Part shown: positions 18,800-58,047 of the stretch, piece by piece
Position numbering within the stretch: the stretch's first letter is position 1
Layout: the number at the start of each line of letters is the position of its first letter
Sequence record: NZ_CP064116.1
DNA: 64,000 nt
Origin: a plasmid
Direction: 5' to 3' (one strand)
Position numbers and translations under genes: made by a program
Notes under the pieces: generated by a model
Databases searched by the model: none
What the model was told of the DNA's origin: nothing
The model's input: only the letters and a program-made list of their open reading frames with translations

Positions 18800-19813
18800 C
18801 TAGTCCGGGGGAGAAAGCGCCAGATCCAGCTGGTAAAGATGCTGGATGGCCAGAGCCTTCAGGCGCTCAGATGTGCACCAGTACGCTTCGTCAGGCGGGA
18901 GGGTGCGGTAAATCCATTCAGACATTGCATGGAGTCGTTCATCTGCCGGCAGCTTAATCAGATTGTTGGCACGTTTACGCTCCGCGCCTTTATTGCGGCG
19001 GTAAACGAGTGCCTCCCGACGCTTACGGCCAGACCAGCATTTCCGCGCAGAGTGGGCCTGAACATCATCATGTTCGCTCATCACTCCTTCCCGGATCAGC
19101 TGCTCACGCTCGGCGCTCTGACGGAGCTTCTTCTCCTGCTCTTTAAACAGCTTGTCCATATCGACGCCCAGCATCTGGAATCCCACGGGGGTTATATAGA
19201 CATACGTTGGCAACCAGGTGCGGGATTCACGATCCCAGGCGCGTTCTTCTGCGAGGCCCAGAACGCCAAACCGTACCTGTTCCTCAATAAGCCGTGAAAG
19301 GCGTGACACCGTCACCTCCGTTTCAGGAATGACATTGCCTTTTGCGTCCTTTGCACTGAGTTCTTTTGCAAGACGGGAGATACACATGCCGACGGTATGC
19401 TTGCCGGCATCACAGAAGCTGATGAGCACTGGCCAGAGCGCATCGAGCAGGCGCTGACGTTCCGGACGGAAGCCATATTTACGTCCCGCCTTACGGCGGC
19501 CGGCGACATAGAGAGGGTGACGAGAAACATGCATGCGCAGGCTGACCTGCCCGGTTTCTTTGTCTTTTTTCACCAGGCGATTGTAGGCATGACCGAGCTG
19601 TCCGGAGAGCTTTTTATAATGCTCCGGGCGATACCAGGCCGGGTTCTCACATTTGGCTTTTGTGGAATGCTCACCGCGTTTGCGGCGGGTCAGTTTTTTG
19701 ACCGGTGCAATGAGGAAATTACCCTGAGTGCCGGCATCGACATCCTGGCAGAAACGGGTTAGCTCATCTTTCGGTAGATCTGACCAGTGAACAGAAATCT
19801 GATTGTCATTCAC
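18800..19813 (-). CDS. repA: IncFII-family replication initiator RepA (RepA1-like)
   Basis: 337-aa ORF whose central and C-terminal parts align with IncFII RepA1 (…RPERQRLLDALWPVLISFCDAG…TPVGFQMLGVDMDKL…). Confidence 0.8.
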   Translation of the reverse strand: MNDNQISVHWSDLPKDELTRFCQDVDAGTQGNFLIAPVKKLTRRKRGEHSTKAKCENPAWYRPEHYKKLSGQLGHAYNRLVKKDKETGQVSLRMHVSRHPLYVAGRRKAGRKYGFRPERQRLLDALWPVLISFCDAGKHTVGMCISRLAKELSAKDAKGNVIPETEVTVSRLSRLIEEQVRFGVLGLAEERAWDRESRTWLPTYVYITPVGFQMLGVDMDKLFKEQEKKLRQSAEREQLIREGVMSEHDDVQAHSARKCWSGRKRREALVYRRNKGAERKRANNLIKLPADERLHAMSEWIYRTLPPDEAYWCTSERLKALAIQHLYQLDLALSPPD

Positions 19814-20394
19814 GGCGGCCTGTTCTTATGGCGGCCGGGTGTTGTGTTATGTGGTGCATGCGTTATAATCCTTCACAGGCCACGCGCCTGCTTTTGGACC
19901 CCCTGATATCTGTGTCTTCCGCCAAGATGATGACAGATGTCGGGGGGGTTGTGCATTCAGGCTCCGGGAAATCCCGTTACCTGCTCCTGAACGTTTTACT
20001 GGACACGTCCTGTCCCTGTCTGTTTCCGGAAGTCCGCATTTCTTCCGTAAAACCATCTTTTGCCACCCGCCTGCCTCACCACAAAGCAGTCAAACCGTCA
20101 GTTTGAGTTAGGACACAAAAGTAATCTGAATCAACAATCTGTCCCACCACAAGACGATCGCTGACGATCCGAATACTACCTTCTCATCAGTAACTTTTCC
20201 AGATGTTAGACCAGATAACAATCCATAGTTTTCATGCTAATTGTCCGGATGAGACTGCTAGCAAGCATCGCACGCAGTAAATTCAGGGCGTTGGGTTTGA
20301 TTTGGTAGGCCAGAGCAAGGAAAATAATTTAGAGGAAGAGCTTTACCTAATAGTTGCAAGTTGACTCTTTCGTATGTTCACTGCACTTAAAAAA

Positions 20395-20465
20395 CCGTAT
20401 AGCTTTTGCTATACAGAATCCATATGGTATGCTTGTAAAGCAATCGCTATACAAGGAGCGCACTC
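20395..20465 (+). promoter_or_regulatory. Palindromic operator/promoter region of the tacAT-like operon
   Basis: Repeated tatagc/gctata half-sites (accgtatagcttttgctatacag, caatcgctataca) immediately upstream of the antitoxin start. Confidence 0.35.
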
Positions 20466-21205
<740 letters not shown>

Positions 21206-21571
21206 GGTTTGAGGAAGAAAGGGGCTTGTTCGATATTTAAGATATTGATTTATAATGACTTTACCATTGAATTTAACATAATCTTTGTTATGCGAAGTTA
21301 TTGATTTATAAGGGTAAGTTGCTCATTTTTACATGAAATACGCACTAATGAATGCGTTTTGAGTGATTGCAGGAAGGCACCTAAAACCTAATAAAATAGC
21401 CCAGCCATAAGGCTCAGGCACACGTCCAGAACATAAATCCCGGTCGCAGACCCTGGTTTGTTTGAGGCAAGTTCAAAGCGGTAGAATCGACCATCAGTGC
21501 TACAAAGAACTGGGTACACTAAAATTTAAGAGCAATGAATCCGGCCATTGTTAATCTAAGTGCCAGTATGA

Positions 21572-22390
21572 TTAAAATTTACTCGCATGGATAACATCCA
21601 TTATAAATACAACTAAAGTATGAGATGCATTAACTGCGAGTCTAGCTTCGGCAACTACTATCTGCGGAGGGTTTTGACCACGCCCATGAGCACTCCCTAT
21701 ATGTGACCGGAATGCGCCAATACCGTCGATTAGTGATGAAATTCCTTTTAAAATTTTGTGCTGGTCACCCGCTAAAGTGGGATCGGAATTAAGGTCCAAG
21801 TCTGGCTGTACGACAGCCCAAAGTGGTGCTACATTCAATTTTTGTGGCATAGGTAAATTGAATTTTTCTATGTAGCATTTTAATGCAGATTCAATTATAG
21901 CGCATGCGGCAGTGACTGATGCATGTGGATCGGTTTGAATATTCTCCACTGCACGAAGAAACTCATTTTCAATGGATGAATAGTCACCAGACTTTAGATA
22001 ATCCTCTAACGTCTTAGAAATCGGAGTAGACCCAGACTTAGTTATAAATCCATTGAGTCTGTAGACTAATTGGTTCTTGGATAAAGCATCAATTATTCTT
22101 TTTTGTCCACTTTCGACTGTAGACCCAGCTCCTGCCCTAGAGAATGAATTTGGAGGTAAATCCATATATTTTTGGATAATTATCCCCAGTACTGAAATTG
22201 CATCTACTGAGTCATCTTCATTGCAAGCTTTAAGCCAATTGCTGCATTTTGTTTCACAGTTTCCTGGAGGCACCTCACCAGGTGCGCCCGATTCCATAAA
22301 CAGTGAATTTAAAGTTGAATGGCTAAAATAATGCTCACCCAGTACTGAAGACACCGCGCCAATTACATTGTTAGGTATTTTATTATTCAT
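21572..22390 (-). CDS. Abortive-infection-like protein (Abi_C-type C-terminal domain)
   Basis: 272-aa ORF in an AT-rich islet. The C-terminal motif AFRSHIGSAHGRG resembles the conserved R-x-x-x-G-x-AHG motif of the Abi_C family. Confidence 0.5.
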   Translation of the reverse strand: MNNKIPNNVIGAVSSVLGEHYFSHSTLNSLFMESGAPGEVPPGNCETKCSNWLKACNEDDSVDAISVLGIIIQKYMDLPPNSFSRAGAGSTVESGQKRIIDALSKNQLVYRLNGFITKSGSTPISKTLEDYLKSGDYSSIENEFLRAVENIQTDPHASVTAACAIIESALKCYIEKFNLPMPQKLNVAPLWAVVQPDLDLNSDPTLAGDQHKILKGISSLIDGIGAFRSHIGSAHGRGQNPPQIVVAEARLAVNASHTLVVFIMDVIHASKF

Positions 22391-23026
22391 TCTTTCCTAC
22401 GGGATTATTCTATTGTTAATTTCAATTAATTATTATAACCGAAAAATGAGGTACGATAAATACCTGGTTTTTACATAACCAACATTGGCAAGCTGTTCCT
22501 GATAATTAACGCTCTGGACAAGTCCGATTGTCAGGTGGGGTTTGAGTGCCTGGGCAGTCATATGACCGCCCAGGATTTGTTTAGAGATAGCCGAGGTACT
22601 TCGTAACAAGAGTCAAAAGACCAGTAATGGACACAATGACCGCCGCTACATCCACTTTTATCTCAATTTTCAGATCGATATTCATCGCTTATGCTCTGAT
22701 ATGATCTGGGGCCCCAGACACGTAATATCTGGCGTATTTATACTGCCGCAGCCTTGGACAGTTCGTGGTTTACATAACCGGTATTGTTCCCACGTTCCGA
22801 GTTTCCTGAAACGCTCTTTAACCCTCACCATCAGCCCTGCCAATGATAAGTTTGCCCACAGGGCAGTCTCCGAACGTCTTTTCGACCCATCAGCAACTTA
22901 TGCCTAAGTCACCGGAGGCGTGCGAGCCACACATTGAACATTACAGATCTATTAGCAGCTTGTCACCGGGTGAAGATGTAAAGGTTTTGTATTAATTCGA
23001 AGAAGAGGTTTTGATCATGAAAAGAT

Positions 23027-23153
23027 TGGTGGCTGGCGAGGACTCGAACCTCACATCCCCTTCCAATAGATTCAGTACCTAAACCTATTGGAAGGCCCTT
23101 CAAAATTGCTTATGAAGGGACCCAGGGAGCTCTACCAACTAAGCTAACCAGCC
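23027..23153 (-). ncRNA. tRNA-like element with an expanded internal region
   Basis: Read on the minus strand: acceptor 5' GGCTGGT, D-arm GCTT-AGTTGGTA-GAGC, then two hairpins (~75 nt) in place of an anticodon arm, T-arm GAGG-TTCGAGT-CCTC, acceptor 3' GCCAGCC, discriminator A, CCA. Total ~127 nt. Confidence 0.4.
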
Positions 23154-23969
23154 ATTAAATGCATTCCGGAGTCTATCAACCTCATCTTTATCTTGCAAGT
23201 AATTGTTGATTAATGTCTTTGTGATTGCATTGTCTTTACGAGGACCAGTAAGGTGTTTATATTTTATGCAAAGTGATTTTGCGATTTTTTCAATGTCTAA
23301 CATTTTTTGGCAGATATGGTGGGCGACCTGTTGGCATACCTGAGAATACAGAATTACATCACGTATTGTTAATTCAGCTTCTTTATTAACTTCATGCTTG
23401 TATTTTTTACTCATTTTAATTAAGTCAGATTCTGAAAACATTTCTTCCCAAAGATTAGTGTTTTCTCGGCTATGTGCGTTAATATTACGAACAAGTCTAA
23501 AGTAATCCAATAATTTTAAATCAAGTTCATCAATGTAAATTGACAACTCATTATGGTTTAATTTAGGATGCGTAATCTTACCATTTATTTTGTTCACATG
23601 AGCATGGTGAATTGCTCTACGTAGTATGTCTACATTATCAATATTGAATGACCGTTCATCACTATATATTTTTTTTGACAAGGAAATGTAGTCTTTCAAA
23701 AATGATTCTAGGCAGCTATATATAAATGCAATATGACTTTGTGTTACGTAGAGAGATGTTTTGTAAATCTCTAAATGTGCAACTTTTAGTTTTGCATTTT
23801 TATGCTTTTTAGTTACGTCTTCAATTCGATTAATGTTAATGCGGCCAGATTCATCTTTGCAAAGGAGTTCCTTTACTGCTACATCAATCAGAATTAAATG
23901 TGGGTTTACTGTCCCTAAAAGTTTTCTGAATTTTGTCTCAATAGATCGTGGCTGCATATCTTCTGTCAT
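23139..23969 (-). CDS. HEPN-like protein (AbiD/AbiF Abi_2-type R-x4-H motif)
   Basis: 276 aa from an ATG with AGGAGG 10 bp upstream. ~30% GC. Motif YFRLVRNINAHSRE (R-x4-H). Its 3' end overlaps the tRNA-like element. Confidence 0.45.
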   Translation of the reverse strand: MTEDMQPRSIETKFRKLLGTVNPHLILIDVAVKELLCKDESGRININRIEDVTKKHKNAKLKVAHLEIYKTSLYVTQSHIAFIYSCLESFLKDYISLSKKIYSDERSFNIDNVDILRRAIHHAHVNKINGKITHPKLNHNELSIYIDELDLKLLDYFRLVRNINAHSRENTNLWEEMFSESDLIKMSKKYKHEVNKEAELTIRDVILYSQVCQQVAHHICQKMLDIEKIAKSLCIKYKHLTGPRKDNAITKTLINNYLQDKDEVDRLRNAFNGWLA

Positions 23970-24102
23970 AGGTAACGCCTCCTGTGTTGAGATTGATTTT
24001 ATAAAATACACGGCAAAGATTAACTTCACTTTGATAGTCAGAGACCGTTTAAGCGAGTTGTGGGCTAAAGATAAATTATTATTGGTCTGAATCCTCAGGC
24101 CA

Positions 24103-24753
24103 TTAATATTCAACGATATCTTGCTTCACGGAACTTAAATCAATCTCTGGCTGTAAAATCAGGACAGTATAACCCATACTCACAGGCAATTTCTCAGTTT
24201 TGAGCCCGCACTGCTCCAATAATGGAAATATCCCGTCTGGAACGCCAGTTACACGCACCTCAAGTGGCAATATAAGATTTCCTGATTCTGTAAATGAGCT
24301 ATGGAGTTGAGATTTCTGTGTATACACAGCCGATACATCTGTACCGCATTTCCAACCATCCTGCCACTCGGTATCGGATAATAGGTGATCCTGCCAGCCC
24401 ATTGAACGTAGCGTGTCAATCATGCAGGTGAATCTAAACAGCGTGCTCTGATTGGCTAACTCACCAGAGCTTGCCAGCCAGATATACTCCACCTTGCTGT
24501 AAAGCCGTGCTGATGGCCCTTTCAGTTTCCCTTGTTCCTGTAACCAGATTATGTCAGGCGCCAGAGATTTAGGAAAAACCTTGCGTTTCTGAGCGGTTGA
24601 AAGCCACTGCATTATGAACATGTGTGTTTGAAGAGACGTGAGAGATCTTCCCTCTTTCCGTGCAAGCTTTACCGCTACGATGATGCACCAGGCGAGATGA
24701 GCTAGTTCAGTATCAGGGCGCTTAGTAGTTAGCTCAGTCAATACTTTCTCCAC
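24103..24753 (-). CDS. Hypothetical protein between the VasL-like gene and the HEPN gene
   Basis: 216-aa ORF with no recognised motifs. Same strand as its neighbours. Confidence 0.4.
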   Translation of the reverse strand: MEKVLTELTTKRPDTELAHLAWCIIVAVKLARKEGRSLTSLQTHMFIMQWLSTAQKRKVFPKSLAPDIIWLQEQGKLKGPSARLYSKVEYIWLASSGELANQSTLFRFTCMIDTLRSMGWQDHLLSDTEWQDGWKCGTDVSAVYTQKSQLHSSFTESGNLILPLEVRVTGVPDGIFPLLEQCGLKTEKLPVSMGYTVLILQPEIDLSSVKQDIVEY

Positions 24754-24914
24754 GACTGTTAAGGAAAATTTTAAGGCCGGAGATTATCATGAAATTGGTT
24801 GTTGGCGAACCGGCGAAATGAGGTCAAGTTTCGAGTTTCGAAGTAGGTAGGGATGAGGTGTATGAAGCCAAACCGGCGCGTCTTCATCATTACCTGGTAT
24901 GTCTAACCCAAAAT

Positions 24915-26261
24915 CTATTTTTGGTTGTTTGACGTGGCCATGATGTAGGAGTTATTCAGTTGCCTGAGCTGTAGATCTGCCCGGTTGAGCAGGTCTCGGG
25001 ACAGCGGTTGATCCTGCGGGGAATTTTGCAGTTGCCGGATTAATTCTTCAACTGGCACGCTTTCGTTTAAGGACTTTGATATAGAGAACACAGCAGTTTT
25101 AAGCTCACTAACGGTCAGGTATTTGCCCTTCTTCTCGTCGAGTTGATTAAGTCTGTCCTGAAGCGTCTGAAGCTCAGATACTCCCCTATACCAACCTGAA
25201 ATGGTGGCATTGGGCAAACTATTGGCTTGCAGCTTTGACCGCCAGTCAGCCGACACCTCCTCTGCAAATTTGGTGTTAGGGTAAAGATGGCGCGTTTGTT
25301 CTACCAACTGATTACCGTATTGCAATGGCCAATACGGTGGAAGAATGCTCAGTTCGTTCAGACGGGAAGTTAATTTTTTTGCATAGGTATCACTGGATTC
25401 AAGCCACGTCGGGGCGTCCTGGCGTAGCTTATCTACAGCCGGAAGAGGCATGCTGGACGGTAAAGCTGCGAGAGAGTTGTTCAACGCATCTTCTCCGGGG
25501 TGGCTGAATACTATTGGAGTAAAAATAAAGGCGAGTATGCCCAGTACGGCAGCTGTTAAAATACCGCCGAAGTAAGCCACTAATGGAGTGATCCTGGTGG
25601 ATGATTTTCTGATTACTTCAACTTCAACTGCTGGTTCAGAATTCACCACATATACCCAGCGCTGCCTATTCTGCCTTTCAGCCCTAACAGGTAGTGCTAC
25701 ATCTGTTAGATTGCTCTCTGTCTGGCTTGAGGGGACATCGCTATTCTCCAGCCTGATAGTTGTGTTTTGCAGCATCTGACGAAGCGGCTCAAATCCGCTT
25801 GCATTGTGGAGTTCGAGCCGTTGCAAGGCTTCACCTGTTGAGCTCAAAAGCCTTATGCCCTGGTTCAGGCCTGGTAAATCCTCCTTCTGAAGGGAAAAAG
25901 TCCGGTACAGCTGCTGAAGACGTTTACTCAGGCTGCTAAGTATTTCTATTCTGGCATGTGCAGAAGCGGGCCACATTGCTGACCATTGGTAGCGTATCAG
26001 GGCATCCAGAATCGCCATACCTTCATTGAAACCCTGTATACCCGCCTGTTGTGCCCTTGCCAGGGTATACCACGCAGCTGTCTGAAGCTCGACACCATTG
26101 GTATCGAAAAGGTTTAATGCCAGTTTTTCAACATTCCCCCAATTCACATCCGGACGGGCAGGATGGGAGAGTTTGGCAAGCTCATCACGTAGCGCTGAAT
26201 AATCAGGCATTGTGCGAGGATCGTTTCCGGTCTTGAGGTGGCGTTCGGTAGTGTTGGACAT
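24915..26261 (-). CDS. VasL/ImpA_N-family (type VI secretion-associated) protein with one TM segment
   Basis: 448-aa ORF. The N-terminus (…RPDVNWGNVEKLALNLFDTNGVELQTAAWYTLARAQQAG…) fits the ImpA N-terminal domain pattern. Central TM helix (LVAYFGGILTAAVLGILAFIF). Confidence 0.6.
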   Translation of the reverse strand: MSNTTERHLKTGNDPRTMPDYSALRDELAKLSHPARPDVNWGNVEKLALNLFDTNGVELQTAAWYTLARAQQAGIQGFNEGMAILDALIRYQWSAMWPASAHARIEILSSLSKRLQQLYRTFSLQKEDLPGLNQGIRLLSSTGEALQRLELHNASGFEPLRQMLQNTTIRLENSDVPSSQTESNLTDVALPVRAERQNRQRWVYVVNSEPAVEVEVIRKSSTRITPLVAYFGGILTAAVLGILAFIFTPIVFSHPGEDALNNSLAALPSSMPLPAVDKLRQDAPTWLESSDTYAKKLTSRLNELSILPPYWPLQYGNQLVEQTRHLYPNTKFAEEVSADWRSKLQANSLPNATISGWYRGVSELQTLQDRLNQLDEKKGKYLTVSELKTAVFSISKSLNESVPVEELIRQLQNSPQDQPLSRDLLNRADLQLRQLNNSYIMATSNNQK

Positions 26262-26391
26262 TGTGAAATCCGTATCGAATGAGGGTATGAGTTGATTAGA
26301 TAAACTGATGATTTTCCAGATGCTGCTGTTGTTTCAAGTGCCTGATCATCACTTTACCCTCTGGCATAAACTCGGTCCCATACCGTACAAG

Positions 26392-27211
26392 GGCACTGTT
26401 GCAAATAGTCGGTGGTGATAAACTTATCATCCCCTTTTGCTGATGGAGCTGCACATGAACCCATTCAAAGGCCGGCATTTTCAGCGTGACATCATTCTGT
26501 GGGCCGTACGCTGGTACTGCAAATACGGCATCAGTTACCGTGAGCTGCAGGAGATGCTGGCTGAACGCGGAGTGAATGTCGATCACTCCACGATTTACCG
26601 CTGGGTTCAGCGTTATGCGCCTGAAATGGAAAAACGGCTGCGCTGGTACTGGCGTAACCCTTCCGATCTTTGCCCGTGGCACATGGATGAAACCTACGTG
26701 AAGGTCAATGGCCGCTGGGCGTATCTGTACCGGGCCGTCGACAGCCGGGGCCGCACTGTCGATTTTTATCTCTCCTCCCGTCGTAACAGCAAAGCTGCAT
26801 ACCGGTTTCTGGGTAAAATCCTCAACAACGTGAAGAAGTGGCAGATCCCGCGATTCATCAACACGGATAAAGCGCCCGCCTATGGTCGCGCGCTTGCTCT
26901 GCTCAAACGCGAAGGCCGGTGCCCGTCTGACGTTGAACACCGACAGATTAAGTACCGGAACAACGTGATTGAATGCGATCATGGCAAACTGAAACGGATA
27001 ATCGGCGCCACGCTGGGATTTAAATCCATGAAGACGGCTTACGCCACCATCAAAGGTATTGAGGTGATGCGTGCACTACGCAAAGGCCAGGCCTCAGCAT
27101 TTTATTATGGTGATCCCCTGGGCGAAATGCGCCTGGTAAGCAGAGTTTTTGAAATGTAAGGCCTTTGAATAAGACAAAAGGCTGCCTCATCGCTAACTTT
27201 GCAACAGTGCC
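26392..27211 (+). mobile_element. tnp26: IS26 (820 bp) copy 1
   Basis: 14-bp terminal IRs ggcactgttgcaaa/tttgcaacagtgcc. Transposase ORF 26455-27159 (MNPFKGRHFQRDIILWAVRWY…, 234 aa). Flanking 8-mers differ (cgtacaag vs cgctggac). Confidence 0.95.
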
Positions 27212-44870: not shown

Positions 44871-45690
44871 GGCACTGTTGCAAAGTTAGCGATGAGGCAG
44901 CCTTTTGTCTTATTCAAAGGCCTTACATTTCAAAAACTCTGCTTACCAGGCGCATTTCGCCCAGGGGATCACCATAATAAAATGCTGAGGCCTGGCCTTT
45001 GCGTAGTGCACGCATCACCTCAATACCTTTGATGGTGGCGTAAGCCGTCTTCATGGATTTAAATCCCAGCGTGGCGCCGATTATCCGTTTCAGTTTGCCA
45101 TGATCGCATTCAATCACGTTGTTCCGGTACTTAATCTGTCGGTGTTCAACGTCAGACGGGCACCGGCCTTCGCGTTTGAGCAGAGCAAGCGCGCGACCAT
45201 AGGCGGGCGCTTTATCCGTGTTGATGAATCGCGGGATCTGCCACTTCTTCACGTTGTTGAGGATTTTACCCAGAAACCGGTATGCAGCTTTGCTGTTACG
45301 ACGGGAGGAGAGATAAAAATCGACAGTGCGGCCCCGGCTGTCGACGGCCCGGTACAGATACGCCCAGCGGCCATTGACCTTCACGTAGGTTTCATCCATG
45401 TGCCACGGGCAAAGATCGGAAGGGTTACGCCAGTACCAGCGCAGCCGTTTTTCCATTTCAGGCGCATAACGCTGAACCCAGCGGTAAATCGTGGAGTGAT
45501 CGACATTCACTCCGCGTTCAGCCAGCATCTCCTGCAGCTCACGGTAACTGATGCCGTATTTGCAGTACCAGCGTACGGCCCACAGAATGATGTCACGCTG
45601 AAAATGCCGGCCTTTGAATGGGTTCATGTGCAGCTCCATCAGCAAAAGGGGATGATAAGTTTATCACCACCGACTATTTGCAACAGTGCC
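44871..45690 (-). mobile_element. tnp26: IS26 copy 2 (inverted relative to copies 1, 3 and 4)
   Basis: 14-bp IRs at both ends. tnp ORF 44923-45627 on the minus strand, identical in protein sequence to the other copies. Flanking 8-mers differ. Confidence 0.95.
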
Positions 45691-51244: not shown

Positions 51245-51727
51245 TTAACCCTTTTTCCAAATTTGATAGCAATAGTTAATGTTTGAAGTAAAGTGTTGCT
51301 CAAAAACAACTTCGAAGGTATTTGGAATACTCGGGAAGAAAACATCCCCCTCTGGCTCGATGTCGATCGTCGATAAGTGGAGCGTAGAGGCCATGGGTAA
51401 TGTTTCTCGGTAAATTTCTCCGCCACCAGACACTATAACGTGACCGGTGAATTCAGCTAGCCTGTCCATGGCCTCTTCGATTGACTGAAATACAACTACA
51501 TTGTCATCATTTGATGTCCAACCTGAGCGGGTAACGACCGCGTATTTCCTATTGGGGAGTGCGCCCATAGATTCAAACGTCTTGCGACCCACCAGAAGCC
51601 ACTGATTGTAGGTCAATGCTTTAAAAAGTAGCTGCTCCCCTTTCGCGGACCAGGGTATGTCTGGACCGCAACCAATCACGCCGTTTTTCGCTTTCGCAGC
51701 CATCAATGATACTTTCAAGGTTCTCAT
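51245..51727 (-). CDS. dfrA14: Trimethoprim-resistant dihydrofolate reductase cassette, dfrA14/dfrA5-type
   Basis: DHFR family A sequence (…[64 protein letters not shown]…). A single cassette adjacent to attI1, followed by mobC-IS6100 instead of a 3'-CS. Confidence 0.75.
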
Positions 51728-51873
51728 CCTGGGTTAACTTTGTTTTAGGGCGACTGCCCTGCTGCGTAACATCGTTGCTGCTCCATAACATCAAACATCG
51801 ACCCACGGCGTAACGCGCTTGCTGCTTGGATGCCCGAGGCATAGACTGTACAAAAAAACAGTCATAACAAGCC
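51728..51873 (-). promoter_or_regulatory. attI1 recombination site and cassette promoter region of the class 1 integron
   Basis: Lies between the cassette and the divergent intI1. Contains …gttaactttgttttagggcgactgccctgctgcgtaacatcgttgctgctccataacatcaaacatcgacccacggcgtaacgcgcttgctgcttggatgcc (reverse complement of the canonical 5'-CS attI1 segment). Confidence 0.6.
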
Positions 51874-52894: not shown

Positions 52895-53714
52895 GGCACT
52901 GTTGCAAATAGTCGGTGGTGATAAACTTATCATCCCCTTTTGCTGATGGAGCTGCACATGAACCCATTCAAAGGCCGGCATTTTCAGCGTGACATCATTC
53001 TGTGGGCCGTACGCTGGTACTGCAAATACGGCATCAGTTACCGTGAGCTGCAGGAGATGCTGGCTGAACGCGGAGTGAATGTCGATCACTCCACGATTTA
53101 CCGCTGGGTTCAGCGTTATGCGCCTGAAATGGAAAAACGGCTGCGCTGGTACTGGCGTAACCCTTCCGATCTTTGCCCGTGGCACATGGATGAAACCTAC
53201 GTGAAGGTCAATGGCCGCTGGGCGTATCTGTACCGGGCCGTCGACAGCCGGGGCCGCACTGTCGATTTTTATCTCTCCTCCCGTCGTAACAGCAAAGCTG
53301 CATACCGGTTTCTGGGTAAAATCCTCAACAACGTGAAGAAGTGGCAGATCCCGCGATTCATCAACACGGATAAAGCGCCCGCCTATGGTCGCGCGCTTGC
53401 TCTGCTCAAACGCGAAGGCCGGTGCCCGTCTGACGTTGAACACCGACAGATTAAGTACCGGAACAACGTGATTGAATGCGATCATGGCAAACTGAAACGG
53501 ATAATCGGCGCCACGCTGGGATTTAAATCCATGAAGACGGCTTACGCCACCATCAAAGGTATTGAGGTGATGCGTGCACTACGCAAAGGCCAGGCCTCAG
53601 CATTTTATTATGGTGATCCCCTGGGCGAAATGCGCCTGGTAAGCAGAGTTTTTGAAATGTAAGGCCTTTGAATAAGACAAAAGGCTGCCTCATCGCTAAC
53701 TTTGCAACAGTGCC
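52895..53714 (+). mobile_element. tnp26: IS26 copy 3
   Basis: 14-bp IRs. tnp ORF 52958-53662. Inserted 8 bp after the intI1 stop, removing the outer 5'-CS/IRi. Flanking 8-mers differ. Confidence 0.95.

Positions 53715-56617: not shown

Positions 56618-58047
<1,430 letters not shown>

Follow-up and report, generated by a model that had tools for sequence, protein, structure and literature searches.

Is the AT-rich segment at positions 21206-24914 of the plasmid sequence NZ_CP064116.1 a single anti-phage locus, and what might the tRNA-like element within it do? A preliminary description, made from the letters of the 64,000-nucleotide stretch analysed here (hereafter the window), had read this 3.7 kb as one compact defence locus of three minus-strand genes and a 127-nucleotide (nt) tRNA-like RNA. 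We find instead that the segment is a mosaic of independent accessory genes and not a single system, and that the functional unit is a two-part module of ~1 kb (~24035-23027, minus strand) made up only of the gene for a HEPN-like protein of 276 amino acids (aa) and the RNA that overlaps its stop codon. Across phyla, this RNA has a covarying structure and is strictly linked to its protein. The parts of the module in the window are as follows.

23970-24035, minus strand: 5' leader of the module, with an AGGAGG ribosome-binding site at 23978-23983
23139-23969, minus strand: gene for the 276-aa HEPN-like protein, of a family without a name
23472-23489, minus strand: RNxxxH codons (R161-N162-I-N-A-H166), the HEPN Rx4H motif and predicted catalytic site
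23027-23153, minus strand: tRNA-like RNA of 127 nt, identified by sequence, fold, covariance model and RefSeq label

A tRNA-like RNA at the end of the gene for a HEPN-like protein

The 127-nt element proposed in the preliminary description was recovered at 23027-23153 on the minus strand, overlapping the TAG stop codon at 23139-23141. Read on that strand from 23153 to 23027, it begins with the acceptor strand GGCUGGU and the dinucleotide UA, followed by a D arm (GCUU-AGUUGGUA-GAGC, with GG in the loop) and a short linker, a first hairpin (H1) of ~10 bp closed by a GCAA tetraloop, a second hairpin (H2) of ~17 bp and a further linker, and ends with a T arm (GGUUCGAGUCC), the acceptor 3' strand and an encoded ACCA end. 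The acceptor stem has 7 bp (GGCUGGU/GCCAGCC), and an anticodon loop is absent. The stop codon (23141-23139) falls in the D stem, and the last five codons of the gene (GWLA*) come from the acceptor stem and D arm. The predicted fold has a minimum free energy of -57.1 kcal/mol (z = -4.67 versus dinucleotide shuffles), and the GC content of the RNA is 0.50 versus 0.32 for the open reading frame (ORF), close to the ~30% originally given for that gene. RefSeq places the label 'tRNA-OTHER' on exactly these 127 nt in an identical E. coli plasmid. ARAGORN predicted no tRNA or transfer-messenger RNA (tmRNA) gene in the window, and a scan of 20000-27000 with Rfam 15 at E<=1, in which the tRNA, tmRNA, Y-RNA and abiF-motif models were included, returned no match; at the gathering threshold, only PK-repBA and AAC_AAD_leader were matched in the whole window. 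As neither ARAGORN nor the Rfam tRNA model gives a call, the element is tRNA-like and not a tRNA. Tandem Repeats Finder reported only two trivial arrays (scores <=31), and the RNA is single-copy.

Wherever the DNA of a relative could be read, down to ~20% identity of the protein, an RNA of the same type follows the gene at its 3' end (loci L003-L013, L014, L015, L016-L025 and L029-L034, and the prophage contigs L036/L037/L041). These relatives have the following origins.

L008/L009: Providencia rettgeri chromosome
L010-L013 and L016-L019: enterobacterial contigs
L003-L007 and L020: relatives at ~40% protein identity
L014: Thiolinea metagenome-assembled genome (MAG); L021/L022: deep-sea metagenomes; L023/L024: soil metagenomes
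L015: Planktothrix; L029/L030: two further complete genomes
L025, L031, L032 and L033/L034: relatives at ~20% protein identity
L036/L037/L041: prophage-like viral contigs

A covariance model (R1) built from 12 family RNAs matched the window only once, at the 127-nt element (124 bits), and also recognised loci on which it had not been trained (L025, 51 bits; L029, 65.5; L031, 52.8; L032, 45.5; L033, 75.5; L036, 97.9). All of the RNAs, each folded singly, share a shape of five helices. Covariation was counted over 35 pairs in a model-guided alignment of 15 distinct sequences, with 500 shuffles and slid registers as control. This revealed that 95.8% of cells hold a standard pair, versus 80.3% in the shuffled alignments and 37-56% in the slid registers, that changes on both sides occur in 26 of the 35 pairs, and that not one of the 500 shuffles equals the real alignment on any of five measures. 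Pairing is complete (100%) in the acceptor and T helices, where nine of the 11 pairs show compensatory change, and RNAalifold applied to an independent MAFFT alignment recovered the same helices with compensated changes in 22/35 pairs.

What the family conserves is the top half of a tRNA: the 7-bp acceptor stem, U8, the GG of the D loop, the T-loop sequence UUCRA (UUCRANY, with G53-C61), and the discriminator and CCA. The anticodon arm is replaced by one or two hairpins with loops of 3-10 nt, and no member carries a 7-nt anticodon loop; the tetraloops that close H1 are of generic stable types (GNRA, UUCG, CUUG), and H2 is a rod of 15-25 bp with variable loops. ARAGORN called no family RNA a tRNA or tmRNA in the related loci scanned, the Rfam tRNA model scored in L004 only among the relatives (33.7 bits), and the tmRNA and Y-RNA models matched nothing in the relatives but a chance 13.8-bit fragment in L025. 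No Ro/Rsr gene was present in any neighbourhood examined. With no tmRNA by ARAGORN, no Rfam family, no tag ORF and no rsr neighbour, identification of the element as a tmRNA or Y-RNA was rejected.

The CCA end is encoded in proteobacterial members and absent from cyanobacterial ones. Host tRNA genes show the same contrast in these organisms, and this correspondence therefore suggests, by analogy, that the RNA undergoes normal tRNA-type 3' maturation. The RNA architecture also follows the protein clade: shorter RNAs of 102-105 nt, in which a single hairpin of 17-20 bp takes the place of H1 and H2, are found at L025 (1201-1305) and L032 (1289-1390, both plus strand), whose proteins are the two most divergent (28% mutual identity) and form their own subclade. 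The same two proteins lack the segment matching window residues ~128-145, which hints that this loop may contact H1. Two contigs from marine metagenomes contain, ~1 kb downstream of the module, a further tRNA-like piece that is only partial, with a T arm, the 3' strand of an acceptor stem and ACCA (L021, 5817-5916; L022, 5816-5915; plus strand; 19-20 bits with R1). It may be what remains of an attachment site, or else a second element.

The limits of the module are also visible in the alignments. Among close relatives, identity is 0.91-0.95 in the RNA versus 0.78-0.87 in the ORF, and it falls to ~0.54, the random level, right past the CCA at the 3' end of the RNA. At the other end, an alignment with four relatives shows ~70 nt of conserved leader ahead of the ATG and none beyond. 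Taken together, the conserved leader and the end of similarity at the CCA set the span of the module at ~24035-23027. The shared leader stretch is the probable promoter region; a consensus promoter and terminator scan, which left the leader promoter unscored, gave matches at chance level.

The protein partner carries the HEPN-type R-x4-H motif noticed in the preliminary description, and the quoted string, RLVRNINAHS, was located in its translation. R161, N162 and H166 are unchanged across 52 divergent relatives and, with M1, are the only invariant residues of the 52-sequence alignment (27% mean identity); they are also invariant in an 11-sequence set spanning all clades. AlphaFold2 with the 52-sequence alignment gave an all-helical model with a predicted local distance difference test score (pLDDT) of 92.0 and a predicted template modelling score (pTM) of 0.89, whereas a run with a 10-sequence alignment reached a pLDDT of only 53.6 and was not used. 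The predicted fold is an all-alpha HEPN helical bundle similar to that of HEPN toxins, and the closest structural relatives suggested by the model are the HEPN toxins of HEPN-MNT systems. Foldseek searches of the PDB and BFVD returned nothing significant, and a profile search of PDB sequences with the family gave no match. Pfam, NCBIfam, PHROGs and PADLOC hold no family for the 276-aa protein, and the 52 family members yielded no Pfam match at E<=0.05 and no meaningful match to PADLOC-DB v2.0.0 at E<=0.01. Thus, of the suggestion that this is a HEPN gene of the AbiD/AbiF kind, the HEPN part stands and the AbiD/AbiF part does not: the window protein has no hit to Pfam Abi_2 or PADLOC AbiD/AbiF at E<=0.1, none of the 52 members matches Abi_2, and the abiF RNA motif is not found. 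With both Abi_2 and the abiF motif unmatched, AbiD/F membership was rejected. It is probable that the protein belongs to the HEPN superfamily outside any described family, and its motif predicts a metal-independent RNase that would be harmful if unrestrained.

Possible roles of the RNA

We tentatively favour, by analogy, a reading in which the module is an abortive-infection system whose HEPN RNase toxin is restrained by the tRNA-mimic RNA. RNase P and the CCA-adding enzyme recognise the top half of tRNA, and as the RNA retains exactly the parts that these enzymes read, it is probably excised from the mRNA by host tRNA-maturation enzymes. The tRNA-like RNA would be freed from the mRNA 3' end by RNase P cleavage at G23153, 3' trimming and provision of CCA, and would then bind the HEPN protein as a non-cleavable tRNA mimic that keeps it inactive. 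A phage that halts host transcription or perturbs the RNA would release free nuclease, which would cut cellular RNA, plausibly tRNAs, so that infection is aborted. More speculatively, RNase P cleavage would remove the stop codon in most members and leave a non-stop message; for each antitoxin RNA made one toxin mRNA would be destroyed, and the toxin-to-antitoxin ratio would thereby be set.

Several observations are consistent with this proposal. The strict co-occurrence of protein and RNA and the covariation of RNA architecture with protein clade suggest that the RNA may neutralise the protein. The stop codon is also coupled to the RNA, falling within it or shortly ahead of it in several positions and frames, which relative to the RNA start are +13 to +15 (TAG or TAA), +8 to +10, +7 to +9, -2 to +1, -10 to -8, and -19 to -17. 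The invariant RNxxxH motif and the defence-type and mobile-element neighbours of the relatives likewise fit the proposal. No second conserved protein partner was found among the neighbourhoods of the relatives, and the RNA appears to be the sole conserved candidate for restraining the HEPN protein. A tRNA body joined to a non-cleavable 'anticodon' rod is, moreover, what a pseudo-substrate inhibitor of a tRNA-directed nuclease would be expected to look like. There is also a precedent in AbiF, a HEPN protein that is neutralised by a cis-encoded non-coding RNA (ncRNA) through direct binding in the manner of a type III antitoxin (PMC12373285), and the present module may work like a type III toxin-antitoxin system. 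We infer RNase activity, toxicity, RNA-protein binding, RNase P processing and an anti-phage function.

Other observations weigh against it. The tandem repeats of known type III antitoxins are not present here. The module is rare, occurring in 39 of 72,556 plasmids and one of 5,426 E. coli genomes; in a blastn search of the latter, the RNA matched a single plasmid copy and showed no informative resemblance to any genuine tRNA. When viral contigs were scanned by pattern, the RNA turned up only with the protein, in prophage-like contigs, and no phage was seen to have it by itself, as a mimic of the antitoxin; one further lead from the viral contigs was an ordinary tRNA-Ile and was discarded as false. 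Five arrangements place the stop codon within the RNA or at its first nucleotide and two place it 8-17 nt upstream, and as the stop precedes the RNA by 8-17 nt in L015 and L033, its loss by cleavage cannot be universal. Because U8-A9-G10 and the UAG/UAA of the D stem provide ready-made stop codons in any tRNA-like sequence, the overlap could be a neutral result of compaction.

In a different reading, the role of the tRNA-like structure is confined to cis: placed at the 3' end, it would control expression by processing, stabilising or terminating the HEPN mRNA, and would neither bind nor inhibit the protein. Such a device, on which RNase P, RNase Z, the CCA-adding enzyme or tmRNA would act, would set the amount of protein, and parallels exist in the 3' tRNA-like structures of plant viruses and in MALAT1/mascRNA. 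In its favour, the RNA without exception shares the strand of the ORF and sits at its very 3' end, it encloses the stop codon in most lineages, and in several loci its acceptor stem is succeeded by T-rich tracts. The family also keeps only the tRNA half that RNase P and the CCA-adding enzyme read, with CCA encoded where host tRNA genes encode it and absent in the cyanobacterial members. However, a plain stabiliser or terminator has no need of two long hairpins held by many compensatory changes, nor of an architecture that shifts along with the protein clade, and an unregulated HEPN nuclease would still require an inhibitor, for which there is no conserved protein candidate. We therefore regard a role in cis only as unlikely.

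The proposal of an RNA antitoxin can also be extended, although we consider the extended form quite unlikely. In this form the module would represent a new type of immune or addiction device built of RNA and protein. The mimic would be matured by the tRNA machinery (RNase P, 3' trimming, CCA addition) out of the toxin mRNA itself, with the stop codon removed so that each antitoxin cancels one toxin message, and the HEPN nuclease would guard both tRNA maturation and transcription. A phage that shuts off host RNA synthesis, or that hijacks or blocks tRNA processing, would tip the balance and unleash the nuclease.

Alternatively, the RNA may be a positive cofactor or sensor rather than an inhibitor, serving either as a scaffold to the translation machinery or as a tRNA-shaped bait that switches the nuclease on once a phage tRNA-modifying, tRNA-repair or anti-defence protein modifies, cleaves or binds it. 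That the tRNA elbow, acceptor stem and CCA are so faithfully retained suggests that tRNA-reading proteins recognise the RNA, and several defence nucleases (HepS, PrrC, retron type IX) target tRNAs. A sensor of this kind gives no account of how the nuclease is restrained before infection, and no loop sequence is conserved as a specific bait, the H1 tetraloops being generic and the H2 loops variable; we rate this possibility as improbable.

The islet and its surroundings

The composition of the islet was much as first described. The GC content of 21206-24914 is 0.40 versus 0.515 for the whole window, the three minus-strand ORFs were found at exactly 21572-22390, 23139-23969 and 24103-24753, and the motif string cited for the Abi_C-like gene, FRSHIGSAHGRG, is present in its translation. 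Around the module, the window holds the following features.

20466-21205, plus strand: TacA-like DUF1778 antitoxin (Pfam TacA1, 9e-25) and GNAT acetyltransferase toxin
21572-22390, minus strand: Abi_C / AbiJ-like HEPN gene, 272 aa, a neighbour outside the module
22391-23026, no strand: non-coding mosaic DNA that separates the RNA from the Abi_C gene and has no relation to the module
24103-24753, minus strand: DUF2913 gene, 216 aa, a neighbour outside the module and a common plasmid/phage gene
24915-26261, minus strand: VasL/ImpA_N (TssA-like) type VI secretion gene, by library match
26392-27211, 44871-45690, 52895-53714 and 57228-58047: four IS26 copies with eight perfect 14-bp terminal repeats

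The Abi_C assignment of the 272-aa protein was borne out (Pfam Abi_C, E=1.1e-14; score 54.7 bits, cutoff 24). Its residues 133-267, a C-terminal stretch of 135 residues, also match PADLOC AbiJ (7.6e-11), and in Pfam its N-terminal 130 residues match no known domain and no AbiJ N-terminal domain family. The 216-aa protein, thought to lack a recognisable domain, matches Pfam DUF2913 (2.3e-12) and phrog_15786 (3.7e-44).

That the Abi_C, HEPN and DUF2913 genes cooperate with the tRNA-like element as one multi-gene anti-phage locus might be supposed from their position on one strand within 3.7 kb and from their joint travel: 38 plasmids carry the complete 3.7 kb at >=99% identity. These plasmids, of IncFIB/FII pECL_A-like and IncHI2 types, come from Enterobacter, Klebsiella, Raoultella, Leclercia, Citrobacter and E. 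coli. They are one recent lineage, however, to which the co-occurrence is limited, and neither the Abi_C nor the DUF2913 gene was found beside any relative of the 276-aa gene in other organisms, so that the idea of one compact locus did not hold. Elsewhere, many plasmids of Klebsiella and E. coli carry the Abi_C gene by itself, at 87% identity and adjacent to a gene for a recombinase; it is a single-gene module in its own right and no partner of the tRNA-like RNA. DUF2913 homologues were found in 3165 plasmids without the other genes, and the 455 bp of non-coding DNA at 22542-22996 match, on their own, unannotated DNA of other E. coli plasmids at 87-90%. In sister plasmids, insertion sequence (IS) elements lie between the islet genes without loss of the remainder, and these insertions are outside the module in all but one plasmid, pM1. 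We consider a multi-gene locus very improbable, and a single three-gene system was rejected on the ground that the genes occur independently.

Some details of the mosaic can be added. The Abi_C gene together with ~150 bp of upstream DNA (21571-22543) forms a separate mobile unit. In pM1 from Enterobacter (NZ_CP090910.1; L042, 3001-3277), ISSen4 cuts the HEPN-like ORF, and a remnant consisting of the last 135 nt of the ORF and an intact tRNA-like RNA adjoins the Abi_C gene. The VasL/ImpA_N gene abuts the islet as first described and is an orphan, with no other genes of the type VI secretion system nearby on the plasmid and an IS26 copy 130 bp upstream; in sister plasmids it is truncated, or split from the DUF2913 gene by IS3 or IS630 elements. 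IS26 had been named as a border of the islet, but the copy at 26392-27211 borders the VasL gene, 1.5 kb away from 24914; lying beyond the VasL/ImpA_N gene, it is not an islet border. On the other side, the islet is directly flanked by the TacA/GNAT type II toxin-antitoxin pair, the start and stop of which overlap, and beyond this pair lies a gene for a RepA replication initiator (region 18800-19950, minus strand) preceded by a PK-repBA regulatory pseudoknot (Rfam RF01089, 84.6 bits at 19827-19950). From their sequences, RepA and PK-repBA mark a probable IncFII-type replicon. The four IS26 copies indicate a putative IS26-bounded resistance region, and a match to the Rfam AAC_AAD_leader / attI site (64.2 bits at 51712-51784, minus strand) indicates a probable class 1 integron cassette array.

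Beyond this plasmid lineage, the 276-aa family is small: it forms 10 clusters in a collection of 5.8 billion proteins and has 129 representatives at E<=1e-3 among 1.84 billion proteins; the members found in a second large profile search are all named 'hypothetical protein'. A tblastn search of 50,697 phage genomes with the 276-aa protein gave no match. The genes next to the relatives are typical of defence islands and mobile-element cargo.

L008/L009: Gabija-type GajA/GajB, RES protein, HipA
L013: Gabija-like pair, SUKH protein
L011: RES protein, ArdC, TraI, integrase adjoining tRNA-Leu
L003: Mrr-like nuclease
L007: integrase, TraG
L036 (prophage): DNA methylase, lambda-type phosphatase

In Providencia rettgeri (L008/L009, 4019-7842), the module stands right after a Gabija-like pair (OLD/TOPRIM ATPase and UvrD helicase) and before a RES-domain gene, and one of the two contexts also holds an inovirus-like prophage. 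In the Thiolinea MAG (L014, 4755-6000), a family gene without its 5' end lies beside an IS4/IS5-like transposase with the RNA intact, and an ORF for a group II intron-type reverse transcriptase follows just downstream on the opposite strand.

A functionless relic, whether of a genuine tRNA gene that is decaying or has been interrupted or of island integration that left a scar, has in its favour the PGAP label tRNA-OTHER, the 33.7-bit score of one relative with the Rfam tRNA model and the habit of islands of integrating beside tRNA genes, an example being the tRNA-Leu next to the integrase in L011, yet its likelihood is negligible, given five helices kept by compensatory substitutions from proteobacteria to cyanobacteria, an RNA tied to one protein family across ~20-100% identity and more conserved than the adjoining ORF, and the lack in every member of a 7-nt anticodon loop or an ARAGORN call. 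A real or intron-containing tRNA and an integration scar were accordingly rejected as contradicted by covariation and linkage.

Comparison with known systems

The preliminary description had not recognised the islet as a named system, and for the module this remains the case: the 276-aa gene and the RNA are unmatched in PADLOC, Pfam, NCBIfam, PHROGs and Rfam, and no paper found within the full-text literature searched describes a HEPN protein associated with a tRNA-like RNA or mentions a family accession. HEPN nucleases with structured RNAs are topical because AbiF and its ncRNA have been proposed as the ancestor of Cas13, and the module would add a second HEPN family, unrelated to AbiF, with an obligate RNA partner that is a tRNA mimic with encoded CCA. 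If it is indeed a toxin/RNA-antitoxin defence system, it would represent a new RNA class in bacterial immunity, carried on a cassette of 1 kb that lends itself readily to cloning and testing, and would place tRNA mimicry and tRNA-processing enzymes among the control points of abortive infection. The module resides on multidrug-resistance plasmids of the Enterobacter cloacae complex (IncFIB/FII, IncHI2), where it could aid plasmid maintenance or phage resistance. More generally, 'tRNA-OTHER' labels beside hypothetical genes may hide functional non-coding RNAs.

By analogy, the closest functional counterpart appears to be the pair of AbiF and its ncRNA and, in a wider sense, the type III toxin-antitoxin systems. 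Like the module, AbiF (Abi_2) pairs a single HEPN-type protein with one conserved structured ncRNA on the same strand and is carried on mobile elements; it is linked to abortive infection, as the module would be. The AbiF ncRNA is the abiF motif, known as RCd22 in C. difficile. No sequence relationship between the two proteins was detected, with Abi_2 matching 0/52 members of the present family, and the abiF RNA motif is absent here. The RNAs differ as well: that of AbiF is upstream of its gene and not tRNA-like, whereas the RNA described here comes after its gene, at the 3' end, runs across the stop codon and has the top half of a tRNA with CCA. Type III systems (ToxIN, CptIN, TenpIN, AvcID) likewise combine a protein toxin with a co-transcribed RNA in a compact two-part module on plasmids or prophages and have a role in abortive infection like that proposed here. 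In contrast, ToxI-type antitoxins are tandem repeats upstream of a toxin whose fold is not HEPN and which itself cuts them into units, while the present module has no repeats and a single downstream RNA, the processing of which is predicted to be carried out by host tRNA enzymes.

The HEPN toxins of type VII HEPN-MNT systems (Shewanella SO_3166/SO_3165, PDB 5yep; 7ae2; 8xdj) are ~130-140 aa long and are neutralised by an AMPylating nucleotidyltransferase. The 276-aa protein is twice as long, shares ~10% identity with them and has no MNT gene, its only conserved partner being the RNA. AbiJ is similar only to the neighbouring 272-aa protein, through the C-terminal Abi_C HEPN domain, and the N-terminal half of that protein is unlike AbiJ.

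On the RNA side, the element resembles other non-decoding tRNA-like RNAs, namely the tRNA domain of tmRNA, YrlA, the 3' structures of plant viruses and mascRNA, in using the tRNA elbow and acceptor outside translation. Where such structures stand at a 3' end, RNase P and the CCA-adding enzyme recognise them or set them free. The element differs from tmRNA in that ARAGORN finds no tmRNA and the module contains no tag ORF, and from YrlA in that the ends of YrlA form a Ro-binding stem beside rsr, whereas here they form an acceptor stem and the partner is a HEPN protein. Thus, a HEPN toxin with an RNA partner is of a known kind, and what is new is that the partner is a tRNA mimic fused to the end of the ORF.

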